Positions 9,543-31,365 of a DNA stretch of 47,257 bases are shown in pieces. Origin of the DNA: Thermoanaerobaculia bacterium (GTDB taxonomy: Bacteria; Acidobacteriota; Thermoanaerobaculia; Gp7-AA8); contig JBKJVD010000043.1 in NCBI GenBank assembly GCA_046590585.1, forward strand, positions 1 to 47,257, given 5' to 3'. Position 1 is the first letter of the stretch. Every line of letters begins with the position of its first letter. The translations under genes and the position numbers were made by a program. A model generated the notes under the pieces. That model did no database searches. It was given only the letters and a program-made list of their open reading frames with translations, and had not been told where the DNA came from.

Positions 9543-11750
9543 TTGAAACAGATCGCCATCGCGCTCGCTGCCATCCTCGCCGCCGCCTGTGTTTCGACGC
9601 CTCCCGCTCCGGTTCCGGGACCAGGGCCGTCGTCGACCCCGATGCCCGGGCCGGTTTCGCGGCGCGGGATGACCCCTCTAGCGTCTGCGCCGCGCGGAAT
9701 CGTTGAGCCTCGAATCCGCGTCGGCCTGCTGAGCGATCAGCCCAGCGTCGAGTTTCCCCGCACGCCCCAGGGGTACATTCTGGTCGCTGACGCCGGCCCG
9801 GTCATGTTGCGTCGCGGGTTCACCGTCGAAGCACCACTGGCAAATGCCGTCGTGAGGTATGCCGTCCAGGCAGGCGCAATCTCGGACCTTCCGAGCGCAA
9901 CGACGTTCGTGGAAAAAATCCGCACCGGGACCGGTCAGCGGGTCGATCGCGTGTTCGACCCGGCGAATGGGTTGTACCGGATTCTGGTCGGCGAGTTCGC
10001 CGATTCGCAGTCCGCCAACCCTCTCCGGGATCAACTGGTCACAAGCGGCTACGGAAAGGACATGCTCGTCGTCCGCCGCCCTTCGGATGATCGTTTCGAA
10101 AAGGTCATCAAGCTCACCGATGATGAAGGGGACTCGCACACCGTTCGAGGTGAATCGCTCCTCGTGATGCCCGCCGCGGGCGACACATTGATGCTCGACA
10201 ACAAGCAGTACCGGACGGCGGGACGTCTCTTCGTGAACGCGCGTGGCCTGCTCAATGTCATCAACGAATTGAATTTCGAGGACTACCTTCTCGGCGTGGT
10301 CCCGGCAGAGATGGGACCGAAAATCTACGATGAACTGGAGGCGTTGAAAGCGCAGGCGATCGCGGCTCGAACGTATGCGGTCCGCAACATGGGCCAGTTC
10401 CAGGCGGAAGGCTTCGACATCTGCCCTGGCCCCGCATGCCAGGCCTACAAGGGCTACTCCGGTGAAGAGGAGTTGAGCAATCGCGCGGTGCGCGAGACGG
10501 CAGGACAGATTCTGACCTTCGAAGGCAAGCCGATCGATGCGCTCTACACCGCCACATGCGGCGGCGAGACGAGCGACGTCGGCACGATGTTCCCGGGACG
10601 GAACGAGCCCTACCTCCGTCGCTCACGCTGCATCGAACTGGAACTCGTGTCGGTGCAGGGACGCGAAGATAGTCCGTTGCTGAGCGAGGTGCAGATGCAG
10701 GCGCGCGTCTTCGCCGCCATTGCGGGACTCGAGAACGGGAGTGCGTGGACGGCTCGCGAGGCCGGCGCCGCAGTCGATGCCGTGCTCCGGCTGACCGGTG
10801 CGCCACCAGCGACGACGCGTCCGCGTTCGAGCCGGCGCCGCGATGTCCTCGAATTTCTTTCCGCAGCACTTCGGCTGGACCAGAAGGCCAGAGCTCTGAT
10901 GCTGCCCGAAGACCGCGGATATTTCTTTCCGGCGCGCAGCGATCGCGAGGCCACCGCTTCTGCGGCGGCGGGACTGCTGATCAAGTACGGCCTCGTTCCG
11001 GCGCAGGCGATCGACCGTGTCGACCTCGACGCCGCGATGCCGCGGGAAGAACTGCACGCGCTGCTTCTTTCGTGGTTGCGGGAGCATGCGTCGCTTTCCG
11101 AAGCCACTGGCAAGATCGTCTCGGTCACCGGCCGCCGCCTGATGCTCAAGGCAGAGGGAAAGAGCACCACCTATCAGTTGCCAGCCGGCATTCCCGTATT
11201 TCGACGCGTGGCGGATCGCTACCAGGAGATGACGAGCGTGCCAGTCATGATCGGCGATCGCGCCTCACTCCTGCAGGCGCGCGGCGCGTCGGCTGCACTG
11301 ATCGTTCAGGCAAACGTGGATGGAGCTTCGTTCGACCGTACGTCGAGTTTTGCCAACTGGACGCGCAGCTACCGCGCTGATGATCTGGTGACGTCGATCA
11401 ACCGGCGCAATCCGATCCAGCAGCTGGTCGATCTCCGGCCCATCACCATCGACGCCTCGCAACGGGTCGCCGAGATGGAGGTCACCGCAGAAGGAGGACG
11501 GAAGTTCATCCTTCGCGGCCTGCCCGTGCGCTGGTCCCTGAATGTGCCAGACAATCTTTTCGTATTCGACAAGACGCGGGATGCCGATGGAGTCGACCGC
11601 TACACGTTCTTCGGAAAGGGCTGGGGACATGGAACCGGCTTCTGTCAGGTAGGAGCGTACGGAATGGCCTTCCGCGGATGGAACGCTGAGCGAATCCTGA
11701 AGAACTTTTACGCAGGAGTGGAACTGGTGCAGGCGTCCACGGTGAAGTGA
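9543..11750 (+). CDS. SpoIID/LytB-domain lipoprotein with SPOR-like domain (lytic transglycosylase family)
   Basis: Lipobox LAAAC. SPOR-like YAVQAGA...YRILVGEF. SpoIID EDYLLGVVPAEM..EALKAQAIAARTYA, CQAY, GWGHGTGFCQVGA. Confidence 0.9.
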   Translation: MKQIAIALAAILAAACVSTPPAPVPGPGPSSTPMPGPVSRRGMTPLASAPRGIVEPRIRVGLLSDQPSVEFPRTPQGYILVADAGPVMLRRGFTVEAPLANAVVRYAVQAGAISDLPSATTFVEKIRTGTGQRVDRVFDPANGLYRILVGEFADSQSANPLRDQLVTSGYGKDMLVVRRPSDDRFEKVIKLTDDEGDSHTVRGESLLVMPAAGDTLMLDNKQYRTAGRLFVNARGLLNVINELNFEDYLLGVVPAEMGPKIYDELEALKAQAIAARTYAVRNMGQFQAEGFDICPGPACQAYKGYSGEEELSNRAVRETAGQILTFEGKPIDALYTATCGGETSDVGTMFPGRNEPYLRRSRCIELELVSVQGREDSPLLSEVQMQARVFAAIAGLENGSAWTAREAGAAVDAVLRLTGAPPATTRPRSSRRRDVLEFLSAALRLDQKARALMLPEDRGYFFPARSDREATASAAAGLLIKYGLVPAQAIDRVDLDAAMPREELHALLLSWLREHASLSEATGKIVSVTGRRLMLKAEGKSTTYQLPAGIPVFRRVADRYQEMTSVPVMIGDRASLLQARGASAALIVQANVDGASFDRTSSFANWTRSYRADDLVTSINRRNPIQQLVDLRPITIDASQRVAEMEVTAEGGRKFILRGLPVRWSLNVPDNLFVFDKTRDADGVDRYTFFGKGWGHGTGFCQVGAYGMAFRGWNAERILKNFYAGVELVQASTVK

Positions 11751-11762
11751 CGCGGTACGTCA

Positions 11763-11792
11763 AAGGCAGAAGGCAGAAGGCAGAAGGCAGAA
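11763..11792 (+). repeat. (AAGGCAG)x4 heptamer tandem repeat
   Basis: Directly visible, intergenic between convergent genes. Confidence 0.9.
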
Positions 11793-11856
11793 AGGGGTCA
11801 GACGATTCGACGTGATCTCTGATCGCTTCTCCTCGGCCCTCGTCTCTTCGTCCTCG

Positions 11857-12630
11857 TCAGACGTCGCCGGTGAGGATCAGAATCGCGGCTGCGAGGGTCA
11901 GGCGGGAGTCGATTCGGTGACGGGCCACTTCGAGCCGGTGCGGCGAGCCGGAGGATGCGCGAACAATCCGGCCCTGTGTTTCACGTCCCACGATGAAAAT
12001 CAGGTCGCCGGATCGCCCCGGGGCGAGGTCGAGCGTCAATTTGCGCAGGAGCGCCCGGCCGGCTGAGACGGGTCGAAAGCGAGCGACTTCCCGTTCCTGC
12101 GCGCTCGAGATCGTCCACCGCTCCGGGACGAAGCGACGAAGTATCGACCTTCGAACGAAACCGAGCGGCTCGCCGGCGGGAGACATCACTACCCAGAGAC
12201 CTGGAATCTTCGAGCGCTGGCGCAGGCTGAATGCCACGGCGGCGCTGGTGTCGTGAATGTTCACCGTAATGCGAGGCGCGATGAACACGACCAGTCCGAG
12301 AAACGCGAGCGTGAGGATGACGGCCGCGATGGCGCCGCCCCAGAGACTCTGACCGACGAGCAGCATCGTTACGGCCACTCCCGTAACGATGATCAGCATC
12401 GAAGCCAGCGACGCAACGAGGTCAGCGAACCCGGCAAAGTTCTTCCACGTGAACAGAACCTGCCCGTCGACTCCGCTGATGCTGCAACTCCGGCCGGCGG
12501 CCCTGCCGGTTTCTACTAGATATTCGGTTCGCGTCAGCGGCTCGGGAGGAGGCTGAGCAGGGGAGGCGTGATCAATGCGATCCGTGGGTGGCTCAGCCGA
12601 TTGTGTTTCGCGCGTCAGTCCGCTTTTTTT
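11857..12630 (-). CDS. Two-TM plus LURP-one/scramblase-like domain ORF, likely the C-terminal part of the FHA gene via a frameshift
   Basis: The frame is open from 12630 (inside the A9 run), with 77 codons lacking ATG/GTG/TTG before ATG 12399. Two hydrophobic helices, then a LOR-like pattern ending IDSRLTLAAAILIL. Confidence 0.65.
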   Translation of the reverse strand, partial: KKSGLTRETQSAEPPTDRIDHASPAQPPPEPLTRTEYLVETGRAAGRSCSISGVDGQVLFTWKNFAGFADLVASLASMLIIVTGVAVTMLLVGQSLWGGAIAAVILTLAFLGLVVFIAPRITVNIHDTSAAVAFSLRQRSKIPGLWVVMSPAGEPLGFVRRSILRRFVPERWTISSAQEREVARFRPVSAGRALLRKLTLDLAPGRSGDLIFIVGRETQGRIVRASSGSPHRLEVARHRIDSRLTLAAAILILTGDV

Positions 12631-13070
12631 TTAACGTCGTCGACGGAGATTTTCTGGTGGGGCAGCGTCGAGAGGGGAGGATGCTCGTGATAGGCGGTCG
12701 CCATGACCCCGAAGCCGCTGTCGGCGTTCATCGGCGATGCGTTTTCGCGGGCCGGAAACGGATCGTCGCTCTCCGTGGGAAGTTCCTCGGAAAAGCGGCC
12801 GTAGGAGTTCCCGATCCGCAATTGGGCGCCATGAGTCAGCGGCGCCACCCGAACCTTCTTGCCGTTCACGAACGTGCCGTTGGCGCTGGCGAGATCGTGC
12901 AGCACGAAAAAGCCGCGCTCGAAGACGATCTCGGCATGATGCCGGGATGCTTTCGGATCGCGGAGAATGATGTCGTTTCCCGGGTCTCGGCCGACAGTGA
13001 ACGGGCGATGCGTTTGAAGGCGGTAAGCCTTCTCCGTCCCATCGAGTCCGACGAAGTAAATCTTCGCCAT
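12615..13070 (-). CDS. FHA-domain protein
   Basis: FTVGRDPGNDI..DPKASRHHA..LHDLASANGTFVNG has the conserved GR, SxxH and NG residues of the pThr-binding site. Confidence 0.92.
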   Translation of the reverse strand: MAKIYFVGLDGTEKAYRLQTHRPFTVGRDPGNDIILRDPKASRHHAEIVFERGFFVLHDLASANGTFVNGKKVRVAPLTHGAQLRIGNSYGRFSEELPTESDDPFPARENASPMNADSGFGVMATAYHEHPPLSTLPHQKISVDDVKKKAD

Positions 13071-13092
13071 TGCGCTGATTGTACAGCAGTTC

Positions 13093-13458
13093 TCAGCCGA
13101 GGCCGGCAAGGCCGGGATGTTCGATCTGGTGGACGACCTCGTCGAGTGAGACAGGTTTCGTCAGCCAGACCTTGATCCGGTCGTCCAGAACCTCGTCTTC
13201 GGGCCGGGTCTGGCCGCTGATCACGATCACATGCACTGGAGTTGAAGAGTCGACGTGTTCGAGGACCTCTCCTCCGCTCATGAGCGGCATCATCCAGTCG
13301 AGAAGGACCACGTCGGGACGCTCGCAGCGGATGCGCTCGATTGCTTCCGCCCCGTTCGCTGCAAGCTTCACCTCGAATCCACGCTGGTTGAGGCCGATGG
13401 CGTAGAGCCGCCGGATTTCCGGATCATCTTCCACAACCAGTATCTTTGCCTTCGGCAT
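13093..13458 (-). CDS. Single-domain response regulator (receiver)
   Basis: KILVVEDD, PDVVLLDWMMP, ISG, KP. Confidence 0.9.
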   Translation of the reverse strand: MPKAKILVVEDDPEIRRLYAIGLNQRGFEVKLAANGAEAIERIRCERPDVVLLDWMMPLMSGGEVLEHVDSSTPVHVIVISGQTRPEDEVLDDRIKVWLTKPVSLDEVVHQIEHPGLAGLG

Positions 13459-13588
13459 CCAGGTCCGACTGGCTGCAGTTTTCGTGCAAGTGCGGGGAGC
13501 ACGGCCGCGTGGGCGCAGAGAGCTGAGCATGCTATCCTCCCGCAGCCGCACCGACCGGGCGGCCAGATTCCAGTGAATGAGAGAGTCC

Positions 13589-14125
13589 ATGAACGTCAAA
13601 AAACGTCTGCTTGATGCTGCCCGGATGAATCGTGCAATCCGTCGTATGGCGATCGAAATCGTCGAACGCAATCGCGGGATCGACGACCTGATGATCGTCG
13701 GGATCCGCAGCCGGGGAGTTCCGATCGGGGAGCGTCTGGTGAAAGAGATCGAGGAACTGGAAGGGAAGGCCGTTCCGTTCGGCATCCTGGACATCACACT
13801 CTATCGCGATGACCTCACCACGATTGCACCGCAGCCGGTCGTGAAACCGACTAAGCTGCCCGAGCCGATCGACGACAAGATCGTCGTGCTGGTAGACGAC
13901 GTGCTCTACACGGGACGGACCGTCCGCGCGGCGCTCGACGCGCTCATCGACTTCGGTCGTCCAAAGGCGGTGCAACTGGCCGTTCTCATCGACCGGGGAC
14001 ATCGCGAACTGCCGATTCACGCCGATGTGGTGGGCAAGACCGTGCCGACGGATGCGGATGAAGTCATCAAGGTCAAACTGGCCGAGACCGATGGAGAAGA
14101 TGAAGTTCTCATCATGGAGCGCTGA
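13589..14125 (+). CDS. pyrR: Pyrimidine regulatory protein / uracil PRTase PyrR
   Basis: [38 protein letters not shown]. Alternative start at 13577. Confidence 0.96.
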
Positions 14126-28641: not shown

Positions 28642-31365
28642 CTACTTCAGCCCCTGCGCGACGTAAAGGTCGGAGGTCGTGCGGAGCGCGTTGTAGGCCC
28701 ACGCCGTGGCGTCCGCGGTGGCCACGACCGGCGTGATCTTGTAGACGCCCGCTGGATCGGCCGGCACGAACTCTTTCCATAGTTCTCGCGTTCCGTTGGC
28801 GAGATTGATTTTGAAAACCCGTGCAGGCATCGCGGTCGGGCGGTAGACGAACAGCGACAGGCCGTCGGCGGACCATTGCACCGGGACCTCGCCTTTCTCC
28901 ACACCCGCGACGGGCATCGGAGCAAGGCTCCCATCCGTGGGATAGCGGGCGATGAGTTCGTCCATCGTCGGACCAGCCACGAACCGCCCGTCGGGGGATG
29001 CGGCGAACGCGCGCGTGGTTCCACCCCAGACCGTCTCGGGCGAGATGGTGGTGATCTTCTCTTCCAGCGTGTCGATCACGTGGATCTGATAGTTTTTCCC
29101 CGGCAGCGCACCTCCGACCACGACCCGTCGCGAGTCGGGGAGCCAGATTCCTCCGAGATCAAACGAACCTTTGATGGCGAGTTCGCGCGTCTCACCCGAA
29201 CCGGTCGGGACGATGATGAGCCGGTTCCCGCTGTGAGTGAGCACGAGCCGACCGTCCGGCGAAAGAGCATCGCCGAATCCGTCCGCGATCTTCATCGCCG
29301 CAGGCGTGTCGAGGCGGCGCAGGTAGACGCCGCTCTTCTCGCCGCCACCCTCGCGTGTCTCATTGAACAGAATCGTTCTTCCATCGCCGGAGAGATCGGC
29401 CAGGACCGACCAGTCGAGCCACGCGTAGTCGCGCTCGGCGGGAGTGGTCGCGCTGCCGTAGAGCAGCGCGGCGCGCCAGTTTCCGTTCGACAGCAGCACC
29501 CTTCCCGCCGTCGAGATGTCGAAGAGCTTCATCGACCCGGTCAGGCGATCCACAAGCCGGGTATCGCCATTGAGCTTCACGGCATAAAGCGAAGGGGGAG
29601 CGGAGGTGCTGGTGCCGGTGATCCAGAGTTCGCTGCCGTCCGGTGTCCACGCGAGTCCGTTGGCGCCGTGCGACCATCCGCGGGCGATCGACTCGGGAGC
29701 GGCATCGGAGACGACCACGACATCCGTCTCGCCGCCGTGGGGTTCCAGGAATGCAACCCGCGTCCCATCGGGAGAGACGCGGACTTCCCGGAGCTGGTGC
29801 GGAGTTTCGTAGCGCACTTTGCCGAGCGGATACTCGACGCGATACTTTCCGTTGTTCACGCGGATCAGTGCGAGTTGTGCTCCGTCGGGCGACCAGTCGG
29901 CCTGGGCAACCTGATCCGAGAGTTCGCGCGGGACGCCACCAGCCATCGCCACGCGCGCCAGCGTTCCAAGTCCGCTGATCCGGTCGCGGCGGAGCAGGAT
30001 CGCCACCTCCGCATTCTTCGAGACGGCCAGCACCTCGGCATCCGGAATTCCCAGCGGCCGCGCCTCGGGGTTCTGCCTCGTGGCGACGAAGATCTCGGCC
30101 GGGCTGCCGTCCCAGGCAGCGCTGTAGACGACCGTGTCTCCGTCGCTCGCGAAACGGGCGCCGCGAATCTCGCCGCGACGGAACGTCAGTCGTGAAAACG
30201 TCAGCTCGCCCGTGGAGGACGACTGATGGGTCGCGAGGTACCAGCCACCGAGCGCGGCCCCAGCGATCGCGACGACGACCAGGGCCGTCAGGAGCATTGG
30301 CGACACCGAGCGTTTCTTTGCCTGCGCAACGGTGCGGGGGCGCTGAGGGGCAATCGCAGGCGGAATCGCTGCGGAGGCTGTGCGGACGGTCGGCGCACCG
30401 GGTGAAGAAAAGGGCTGCTGTGCGGTAAGGCGTGCAGCGGTCGGGACGGCCGGCGTGCGCGCGGTCATCGTTCCTGGCCCGGCCGGGTTGCTGACATTCG
30501 ACAGCGTCCCGGCGGATGAAAACGTCGAGAGCGTTTCGAGGTTGAAGGCGAGATCCTTCGCCGACTGGAAGCGCTGTGAGCGATCCTTCTCGAGGCAGCG
30601 GCGGACCAGGCGATCGAGCGCCGGCGGAATGTTCGGATGCGACTCGAGCAGGTCGATCGGCTCTTCCTTGAGGATTGCGCTCAGCGTCTCGATCGACGAG
30701 CCGCGCTTGAAGGCGCGCAGCCCGGAAAGAATCTCGTAAAGAATGGCGCCGAACGCGAAGATGTCGGAACGGGCATCGACGACCTCGCCGCGCACCTGCT
30801 CGGGCGACATGTAACCCACCGTGCCGAGAACCATGCCCGGCTCGGTGGCGGCAACCTGAAAGGTCGGTCCTTCCGCATCCGCGCCTGGGCTGAGTTTCGC
30901 GATTCCGAAGTCGAGAATCTTCAGACGCCCATCGCGTGTGAGGAAAATGTTTTCCGGCTTGAGGTCGCGATGCACGACCCCTTTTTCATGCGCAGCGGCC
31001 AGGCCGCTGGCCATCTGCAACGCGGCTTCTACCGCGCGCCGCGGAGGCAGCGCACCCCGCGAGAGCCGGTCCCGGAGCGTCTCACCCTCGAGCAACTCGC
31101 TGACCAGGTACGGGGTGCCCTCTGCGCTTCCAATGTCGAAGATCGTCAGCAGGTTTGGATGGTTGAGCATCCCGGTGGCGCGCGCTTCCTGCTCGAATCG
31201 CGACAGCCGCTCCTGATCGCTGAGCGTGACGGCGGTGAGCACCTTGATCGCCACATCACGTCCGAGCCGCGTATCGCGCGCCCGGAACACCACGCCCATT
31301 CCACCCTCACCAAGAGTCCCGGTCACCTTGTAAGGCCCGAGCATCGAACCAATCTGAAGCGGCAT
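28642..31365 (-). CDS. Hanks-type Ser/Thr protein kinase with TM and TolB/PD40-like beta-propeller
   Basis: LGEGGMGVV, VAIK, HRDLKPEN, DFG, GTVGYMSPE, one TM helix, WSPDG/SPDG repeats. Confidence 0.95.
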   Translation of the reverse strand: MPLQIGSMLGPYKVTGTLGEGGMGVVFRARDTRLGRDVAIKVLTAVTLSDQERLSRFEQEARATGMLNHPNLLTIFDIGSAEGTPYLVSELLEGETLRDRLSRGALPPRRAVEAALQMASGLAAAHEKGVVHRDLKPENIFLTRDGRLKILDFGIAKLSPGADAEGPTFQVAATEPGMVLGTVGYMSPEQVRGEVVDARSDIFAFGAILYEILSGLRAFKRGSSIETLSAILKEEPIDLLESHPNIPPALDRLVRRCLEKDRSQRFQSAKDLAFNLETLSTFSSAGTLSNVSNPAGPGTMTARTPAVPTAARLTAQQPFSSPGAPTVRTASAAIPPAIAPQRPRTVAQAKKRSVSPMLLTALVVVAIAGAALGGWYLATHQSSSTGELTFSRLTFRRGEIRGARFASDGDTVVYSAAWDGSPAEIFVATRQNPEARPLGIPDAEVLAVSKNAEVAILLRRDRISGLGTLARVAMAGGVPRELSDQVAQADWSPDGAQLALIRVNNGKYRVEYPLGKVRYETPHQLREVRVSPDGTRVAFLEPHGGETDVVVVSDAAPESIARGWSHGANGLAWTPDGSELWITGTSTSAPPSLYAVKLNGDTRLVDRLTGSMKLFDISTAGRVLLSNGNWRAALLYGSATTPAERDYAWLDWSVLADLSGDGRTILFNETREGGGEKSGVYLRRLDTPAAMKIADGFGDALSPDGRLVLTHSGNRLIIVPTGSGETRELAIKGSFDLGGIWLPDSRRVVVGGALPGKNYQIHVIDTLEEKITTISPETVWGGTTRAFAASPDGRFVAGPTMDELIARYPTDGSLAPMPVAGVEKGEVPVQWSADGLSLFVYRPTAMPARVFKINLANGTRELWKEFVPADPAGVYKITPVVATADATAWAYNALRTTSDLYVAQGLK

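Follow-up and report, generated by a model that had tools for sequence, protein, structure and literature searches.

The subject of this analysis is a 47,257-nucleotide (nt) stretch of DNA, contig JBKJVD010000043.1 of the Thermoanaerobaculia assembly GCA_046590585.1 (contig C236 in our numbering), hereafter called the window. One of its genes, coding for a protein with an FHA domain, runs into nine consecutive adenines and stops directly behind them, and from the same place a reading frame shifted by -1 continues into what is predicted to be a membrane-anchored domain. The poly-A run is most probably a conserved and selected recoding site, through which one gene would provide an FHA protein in two forms, a short soluble one and a long one tethered to the membrane. 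This reading is carried by comparison with the relatives of the source organism, in which the run, the split and the protein sequence of the shifted frame are all retained. Sequencing runs that contain the stretch are labelled soil or rhizosphere metagenomes.

The anatomy of the locus was derived from the minus-strand reading and an open reading frame (ORF) listing of the window (Table 1). Because the -1 frame is shut by a TAA on the upstream side of the run and the zero frame by a TGA on its downstream side, the change of frame is confined to 16 nt, essentially the A9 run itself. The shifted frame, translated here as P0001, reaches its first ATG, GTG or TTG at codon 78; the preceding 77 codons are devoid of starts, and its first ATG falls inside the first of two hydrophobic helices (residues 68–93 of the model described below). 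One added A joins 149 residues to 255, resulting in a product of 404 amino acids (aa) with the junction VKKKSGLTR. The end of the FHA ORF, the position of the A9 run, the -1 frame with its lack of starts and the 404-aa fusion had all been put forward in an original prediction made from the letters of the window, and all were confirmed on the sequence.

The source genome is a metagenome bin of 258 contigs and 3.15 Mb, 73% complete, and holds three A or T runs of at least 9 nt, where its base composition would predict ∼1.5. Judged by this genome alone the run is unremarkable, and it is the conservation of the run in relatives that rises above chance. A Logan contig of sequencing run X2 (record 10) spans positions 12493–12838 with zero differences and likewise reads A9, whereas the assembly of sequencing run X1 is broken at the A-run, where one contig stops and another starts. 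X1 and X2 possibly represent the source sample itself, and the agreement was given little weight. In contigs such as these, minor A10 variants would be invisible.

Conservation of the run and of the shifted frame

Searches with the downstream protein as the query produced matches in 35 of 60 related genomes, which local tblastn and frame tracing divided into 22 with a split gene and 13 with a single ORF. In the 22 split genomes, all from the same family, the FHA ORF ends after 141–177 codons directly behind A9 or A10. Together with the window, 16 further species genomes and 58 metagenome contigs these make up 97 distinct junctions; 39 of them, namely the window and 38 species-level genomes of the same Thermoanaerobaculia family, are referred to as the genome loci. 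Seven exact duplicates, ten contigs that were too short downstream and three loci running off a contig end were set aside from the metagenome scan, and two metagenome loci, L126 and L179, were handled apart from the 97. Retention of the same split at a conserved A-run in orthologues, a check proposed along with the original prediction, is therefore seen in 97 distinct junctions.

The run measures 9–11 nt in every junction and is shorter than nine in none. Sorted by length and offset, there are 52 junctions with A10 and the downstream domain in the -1 frame, 28 with A9 and -1, 16 with A10 and +1, and a single one with A11 and -1, so that the domain lies in the -1 frame in 81 cases and in the +1 frame in 16. 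The zero-frame stop is found just past the run in all 97, and 0–6 nt behind it in the genome loci. In 38 of the 39 genome loci the first A of the run is the last base of an xTA codon for Leu or Val, or of a TCA codon for Ser; only the window departs from this, its GTT AAA AAA AAA having a T in place of the first A of the usual A10. AAA accounts for 22% of the Lys codons in 838 long ORFs of the source genome and for 37% in the split FHA genes outside the run, while the run itself is never broken.

An in-frame allele was encountered only once, in the metagenome contig L126, where an A9 at 1935–1943 lies within a single 402-aa FHA-tubby ORF. Over 2838 nt this contig shares 99.4% identity with L123, a locus with A10 and the +1 offset. 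Similarly, L162 (A10) and L183 (A11) are 97.4% identical, and between the same flanks A11 with the -1 offset is found in L183 and L194, and A10 with the +1 offset in L149 and L162. It follows that length and offset class flip together between close strains, bypassing the in-frame state. Free drift in length would put a third of the loci in frame, and since L126 is the only one seen, the out-of-frame state appears to be maintained. These comparisons argue that selection is acting both on the nucleotides of the run and on the frame offset. In the other locus handled apart, L179, an in-frame TAG interrupts the FHA tail (MPT*QHPQL) before the A10 run, a lesion or an error in one contig.

The protein sequences of the shifted frame align from directly behind the run. 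Within 35 codons past it, the motif T[EDQ]P occurs in the shifted frame in 75 of the 97 loci and in each of the other frames in one; the more extended xT[ED]P[LFIMY] is present within 50 codons in 67. Start codons behind the run are not conserved among the loci. Some have a GTG or an ATG within a few codons, and in L001, L011, L041 and L051 the first start lies 74–79 codons downstream, beyond the motif and inside the conserved protein. Because both the motif and the protein of the shifted frame are conserved ahead of the first starts, independent initiation fails to explain the conservation, and the pattern argues for translation of the shifted frame right from the run. G+C content at third codon positions in the linker did not discriminate between the frames (0.709 shifted, 0.746 zero, 0.594 other). 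In public gene calls the downstream frame is represented by orphan proteins of 171–239 aa with internal starts (P0003–P0007), and the 404-aa form was missing from the protein collection searched between 141 and 450 aa.

Runs of the same kind are found in two other genes of the lineage. In five complete relatives, which possess from 4 to ∼10 A or T runs of at least 9 nt per genome, the FHA gene holds one run each and a gene for a DUF4388 protein a second, while in three of them a further run belongs to a gene for a DUF374 (acyltransferase-like) protein. The DUF4388 run is in frame in all 19 loci from the family and one sister family (A9 in 4, A10 in 14 and A11 in 1), and in each of these a -1-frame stop is positioned exactly one codon past the run. 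Two genomes of another sister family (L222 and L224) have A10 with the C-terminal part in the -1 frame, and nine more distant loci have no run. For the DUF374 gene, 17 loci (L231, L234, L236/L253, L240–L242, L245–L249, L251, L252, L257, L262 and L263) share a run of exactly A10, behind which the C-terminal part (LLRSWDR..P.PF) continues in the -1 frame, and the position of the shift falls inside the enzyme domain. A10 is in frame in one DUF374 locus (L244), one locus is partial, and 13 are in frame and free of the run, including the copy of the source genome, L254 (G000:C8:342-764); the unpublished genomes G022 and G042 contribute only to the no-run or partial rows. It would thus seem that in this family reading passes from A10 runs into the -1 frame at a frequency sufficient for the synthesis of needed proteins, and the DUF4388 and DUF374 sites lend support to recoding of the FHA gene.

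Two further long runs were noted. The third run of the source genome (G000:C58:1671-1679, L199; A9 on the plus and T9 on the minus strand) falls in the long open frame that forms the 5' end of a large ORF on the minus strand, one that from its appearance only we tentatively take to be a ribonucleotide reductase; this run is probably part of a leader and not coding. In one of the relatives an A9 (G028:C94:14588-14596, L237) is situated 3 kb downstream of the FHA run, beside a GC-rich inverted repeat in a terminator-like region.

Probable mechanism of the proposed frame change

We regard slippage of RNA polymerase on the run as the probable mechanism, although with some reserve. Standard expression would yield the 151-aa soluble FHA protein, terminated two codons past the run. 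On the T9 template the polymerase would slip and add one A in a fraction of the transcripts, and these A10 mRNAs would be translated normally into the 404-aa membrane-anchored form. Ribosomes slipping by -1 on A_AAA_AAA possibly contribute, and polymerase and ribosome may act together. In this manner the gene would set a fixed ratio between a free and a membrane-tethered reader of phosphothreonine.

Three features of the junctions favour the polymerase. A -1 ribosomal shift needs only a 7-nt heptamer, yet every run is at least 9 nt long and most are of 10. Secondly, both offsets exist: to restore the frame in the 16 +1 junctions, which include those of L014 and L049 from sister species, one base must be lost or two gained, and this is out of reach of a -1 ribosomal shift. 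Thirdly, no stimulatory element is conserved around the run. Neither the 70 nt downstream (39 loci; mean z +0.46 versus -0.32 for control windows) nor the 45 nt upstream (97 junctions; mean z 0.08) showed an excess of structure, the z-scores being based on shuffles that preserved base composition but not dinucleotides. A Shine-Dalgarno-like GGAG, GAGG or AGGA within 20 nt upstream was found in only 15 of the 39 loci and at varying distance, and an Rfam scan of positions 11500–13600 gave no match at E values up to 1. The 8-bp stem to which the original prediction had drawn attention, GGCTGAGC/GCTCAGCC (12598-12591/12558-12551), is indeed present in the window, but it is neither conserved nor part of the minimum-energy fold of the 70 nt. 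The lengths of the runs also agree with published values: for many bacteria nine A or T is described as the length from which slippage usually becomes evident (PMC1088944), and in reporter tests the frameshift efficiency increased with length, from 10% through 40% to 63% for runs of 7, 9 and 11 A, respectively (PMC3711429).

Several points weigh against this account. Slippage and both isoforms are predictions from sequence, and the sequences compared are kin, so that the counts overstate the number of independent cases. Variation in run length between close strains and the break of the X1 contigs at the run indicate that some heterogeneity at the level of DNA is possible. In the window itself the efficiency may be below that of the relatives, as its run has the minimum length, A9, and the unusual phase GTT AAA AAA AAA. 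Finally, the bias towards -1, seen in 81 of the 97 FHA junctions, in all 17 split DUF374 genes and in the -1 stop of the DUF4388 genes, would also fit a shift made by the ribosome, and A_AAA_AAA, A_AAA_AAG or A_AAA_AAC stands in the correct phase in 39 of 39 genome loci.

A ribosomal mechanism, either -1 programmed frameshifting on A_AAA_AAA/G/C or sliding on poly-A, would make the same two isoforms and, while unlikely in our judgement, it is the most serious of the alternatives. The slippery heptamer lies in the zero frame, and the DUF4388 arrangement, with its stop one codon past the run, mirrors that of E. coli dnaX. Sliding of ribosomes on iterated AAA codons has also been reported (PMC4363877). 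What such a mechanism leaves unexplained is that the direction of the shift is not fixed, 16 junctions including those of the sister species requiring +1, that no run is shorter than nine although seven would be enough, and that neither a downstream structure nor an upstream Shine-Dalgarno-like element has been conserved.

Returning to slippage during transcription, it has to be set against slippage during replication, by which the locus would be phase-variable and the long form would be switched on in subpopulations. The differences in run length between nearly identical strains (L123/L126 and L162/L183) and the contigs of X1 that break at the run are what such a contingency locus would be expected to display. 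A switch in use should, however, often be found in its ON state, and this was the case for only one of 98 distinct sequences. Moreover, the offset has remained stable in a clade in which the C-terminal domain diverged to ∼30% identity, and a DNA switch does not account for a DUF4388 run that is in frame in 19 of 19 loci. We therefore hold phase variation to be improbable, and from the original prediction, which had proposed recoding or phase variation, it is recoding that is supported.

Still less probable is that two separate genes are involved, with the downstream tubby-like protein started by translational coupling or re-initiation and the A-run serving as an unstructured landing site for ribosomes. 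Public gene callers do use internal starts, and in some loci a GTG or an ATG is available close to the run; nevertheless, no start is conserved, the motif behind the run is specific to one frame, the ancestral orthologues are fused, and in DUF374 it is one enzyme domain that a run of the same kind divides. Hardly credible is an error of sequencing or assembly in the homopolymer, or a recent pseudogene: homopolymers are error-prone and the bin is fragmented, but the same out-of-frame arrangement recurs in 97 distinct junctions from many records with differing contig-naming styles, the X2 contig reads A9 as well, and both frames stay open and conserved as protein.

Predicted products, gene neighbourhood and ancestry

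The short isoform is predicted to be a soluble FHA protein of 151 aa. Its match to the Pfam FHA family (PF00498) has an E value of 1.1e-20 and a score of 74.2 bits against a cut-off of 20.7. The domain occupies residues 1–100 and is nearly invariant in relatives, with 65 invariant columns in an alignment of 39 sequences. These include G27-R28, S42-R43-H44-H45 and N64-G65, that is, the GR...SRxH...NG residues, which we take to be those that bind phosphothreonine. Behind the domain follows a variable, Thr-rich tail with an invariant ELPTE, recurrent PTE/PTS, a PHEK motif and an LKKK end; that of the window ends in VDDVKKKAD. By sequence, the nearest solved structures are the FHA domains of GarA and OdhI (E value of 3.4e-10). 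Sites of the type pT-x-x-[I/L/F] are bound by FHA domains, and the conserved Thr motifs before and behind the run conform to this pattern, which suggests that they are putative FHA-binding sites. The arrangement further suggests, by way of hypothesis, a GarA-like self-binding or the binding of the long form by the short one.

Kinases that might phosphorylate such motifs are numerous. The source genome has 42 Pkinase (PF00069) matches over the Pfam cut-off, which makes it unusually kinase-rich for a genome of its size and completeness. One of these matches is located in the window at 30565–31332 on the minus strand, within a 907-aa ORF (28642–31365). The original prediction had linked the FHA protein to this particular kinase; given the 42 matches, the link is unspecific.

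In the predicted long isoform of 404 aa, a Thr/Pro-rich linker would connect the FHA domain to a tubby-like barrel that is tethered to the membrane. An AlphaFold (AF2) model of the downstream part, built from a 40-sequence alignment, has a mean predicted local distance difference test (pLDDT) score of 85.9 and a predicted template modelling score of 0.77, and displays 12 strands and a C-terminal helix (residues 242–255). Helices 68–93 and 97–117 are inserted after the third strand, and pLDDT values in the stretch of this hairpin are 92–98. Hydrophobicity agrees with a membrane anchor, 29 Kyte-Doolittle windows of 19 residues exceeding 1.8 between residues 62 and 123. Comparison with 48,161 chains in VIA-align placed first the LURP-one-related (LOR) protein At5g01750 (2q4m_A; Z 13.9, root-mean-square deviation 2.9, 139 residues aligned) and second Tubby (1i7e_A; Z 12.6), while the next natural folds had Z below 8.5 and covered the hairpin only. 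Foldseek retrieved nothing from the PDB at E values of 0.001 or lower, the best natural match being 1zxu (2.4e-3) with weak agreement, and Pfam LOR (PF04525) did not match P0001 at E values up to 1. The domain is accordingly placed in the tubby/LOR superfamily at the level of the modelled fold only, and at this level the LOR/scramblase-like C-terminal part of the original prediction is borne out. MauE and DUF6594, considered as families for the downstream part, were discarded as sub-threshold Pfam noise.

The Tubby/LOR/scramblase superfamily (LOR = DUF567) shares a 12-strand barrel around a central C-terminal helix; the window protein differs from its other members by the hydrophobic two-helix hairpin after the third strand and by the N-terminal fusion to FHA. 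Because the hairpin has two helices, the FHA domain and both halves of the barrel would be on the same side of the membrane, and this side is presumably the cytoplasm, because FHA domains act on phosphoproteins. The source genome also encodes a stand-alone tubby/LOR-like paralogue (G000:C164:5705-5935; locus L002:1330-2064, minus strand) of 244 aa. This protein lacks an FHA domain, no hairpin of hydrophobic helices was noticed in it, and its match to Pfam LOR (E value of 5e-4) is below the cut-off.

Table 1. Features of the FHA-tubby locus in the window, and the poly-A run of the DUF4388 gene elsewhere in the source genome. Positions are those of the window unless a contig is named.
Feature	Position	Strand	Description
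Zero-frame FHA ORF	12615..13070	-	151 aa; ATG at 13070; ends GTT AAA AAA AAA GCG GAC TGA
A9 run, proposed slip site	12624..12632	- (T9 on +)	Zero frame: three AAA Lys codons
Zero-frame stop TGA	12615..12617	-	Two codons past the A9 run
-1-frame TAA	12631..12633	-	Shuts the -1 frame on the upstream side
-1 frame (P0001)	11857..12630	-	257 codons and stop (11859-11857); C-terminal part of the predicted long isoform
PPTD, the window's version of the linker motif xT[ED]P[LFIMY]	12580..12591	-	Shifted frame, P0001 residues 14–17
Two hydrophobic helices, predicted membrane anchor	12280..12429	-	P0001 residues 68–93 and 97–117; hairpin within the barrel
Tubby/LOR-like 12-strand barrel (predicted)	11860..12543	-	Strands in residues 36–63 and 122–235; central C-terminal helix 242–255
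Response-regulator receiver gene, single-domain	13096..13470	-	Pfam Response_reg, E value 1.4e-20; ends 22 nt upstream of the FHA start
8-bp inverted repeat	12551..12598	-	32-nt loop; 25 nt past the run; excluded from the mechanism
DUF4388 gene run, A10	G000:C34:5803-5812 (L200:1504-1513; gene L200:1243-2040)	-	LKKK, residue 176, inter-domain linker; in frame

The gene is flanked by a receiver gene upstream and by a convergent SpoIID/SPOR gene downstream, and this order is common to most of the split and fused loci. The receiver gene, a likely operon partner of the FHA gene, precedes it in 35 of the 38 other split loci and in 9 of 13 fused loci; the SpoIID gene follows in 9 of the 13 fused loci. 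Between the convergent stops of the FHA-tubby and SpoIID/SPOR genes of the window a short spacer contains a tandem repeat of ∼4 copies (positions 11763–11792), the 7-nt unit of which reads CTGCCTT on the minus strand.

The fused loci belong to 13 more distant orthologues at the same genomic position; ten represent the same family, the remaining three two sister families, and one of the 13, L032, stems from the unpublished genome G022. All are single ORFs of 375–449 aa without a run at the site, and since their neighbourhood is that of most split loci, they can be considered positional orthologues. In one of them, L029 (G005:C305; 391 aa), which lacks the run in the linker, there is another, in-frame A9 (ATA AAA AAA AAC) at codon ∼289, within the tubby-like domain. 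A quick maximum-likelihood tree of the downstream domain, in which relatives are 23–35% identical to the copy of the window, was calculated for 50 rows, omitting L034 and L055 (incomplete C-terminal frames), L026 (a contig without the FHA part) and the 58 metagenome loci. The 37 split genes are on one side of a branch supported by a Shimodaira-Hasegawa-like approximate likelihood ratio test value of 95, the three sister-family genes are opposite to them, and the window gene is on a long branch. The simplest history compatible with these sequences would be a fused ancestor, a single origin of the run and of the offset in one clade, and their retention thereafter.

Relation to known systems

Conserved recoding in cellular, non-mobile bacterial genes appears from the published accounts consulted to be rare, the examples being dnaX, a few type III secretion genes, insertion sequence (IS) elements and a number of candidates. 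The present case would add a signalling gene that is kept family-wide in uncultured soil Acidobacteriota and for which a fused ancestral state is available for comparison. The natural variants in run length and offset, together with the two further genes, form a natural series with which shifting by the polymerase could be separated from shifting by the ribosome. Annotation pipelines miss the predicted 404-aa FHA-tubby membrane protein, and public gene calls truncate these proteins.

A more far-reaching scenario may be considered, in which slippage on poly-A serves this family generally as a means of producing isoforms. Its RNA polymerase would slip on A9–A11 with such reliability that runs of this kind were recruited independently in three or more unrelated genes, those for FHA-tubby, DUF4388 and DUF374. 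Run length and offset class would then tune the ratio of free to tethered protein, xTEP[L/F/I] and ELPTE would be kinase targets bound by the FHA domain in cis or in trans by analogy with GarA, and the short form could compete with or regulate the long one. Since slippage varies with the conditions of elongation, the isoform ratio might in addition report the physiological state of the cell. Taken as a whole, this combination is possible, though on balance we are inclined to doubt it.

The kind of system is already known, and what would be new, relative to the literature searched, is its occurrence in this gene and this lineage and the fact that it is conserved so widely. A literature search outside the supplementary tables of the GeneTack survey returned no match that combines slippage or frameshifting with an FHA domain or with Thermoanaerobaculia. 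That survey (PMC3711429) covered 1106 genomes, of which only three were from Acidobacteria; in its poly-A clusters, as here, frame transitions of cellular genes coincide with A-rich heptamers or runs that are conserved. 'FHA' is absent from the main text of the survey, the supplementary tables of which could list a related cluster.

Among proteins with solved structures the closest FHA domains, those of the actinobacterial GarA and OdhI, belong to small FHA proteins in which a phosphorylated Thr motif of the protein itself is bound by the FHA domain. The window protein similarly has Thr motifs (ELPTE, PTE/TEP) flanking the domain, the phosphorylation of which is putative, but GarA possesses neither a tubby-like or membrane part nor recoding.

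In E. coli dnaX the frameshift requires an upstream Shine-Dalgarno-like element and a downstream stem-loop. The heptamer of that gene, A_AAA_AAG, stands in phase in many of the relatives studied here, again with a stop closely behind in one frame; however, the stimulators are not conserved at the FHA site, and the FHA runs are always 9–11 nt long. A closer parallel is provided by dnaX of Thermus thermophilus (tau/gamma), where the polymerase is reported to make mRNAs with a variable number of A on an A9 run (PMC1088944, PMC5009743). As in the FHA gene, there is a sense-strand A9 in a cellular gene, two products share the N-terminus, and no elaborate stimulator is known from these accounts. In T. 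thermophilus the genomic frame encodes the long product and the slip results in the short one, whereas the FHA gene, in which slippage is proposed here, has the opposite layout; it is the DUF4388 gene of the source genome that is of the dnaX type. The logic of the FHA gene, with the longer product dependent on the slip, is the same as that described for mxiE and spa13 of Shigella flexneri, in which a non-templated base at a homopolymer joins two overlapping ORFs in part of the mRNAs (PMC1088944, PMC5009743). Both of these are genes for type III secretion in a single pathogen and reside on a plasmid, whereas the FHA gene is a signalling gene on the chromosome of a family of uncultured soil bacteria and, unlike mxiE and spa13, is represented by 97 distinct junctions with both -1 and +1 offset classes.

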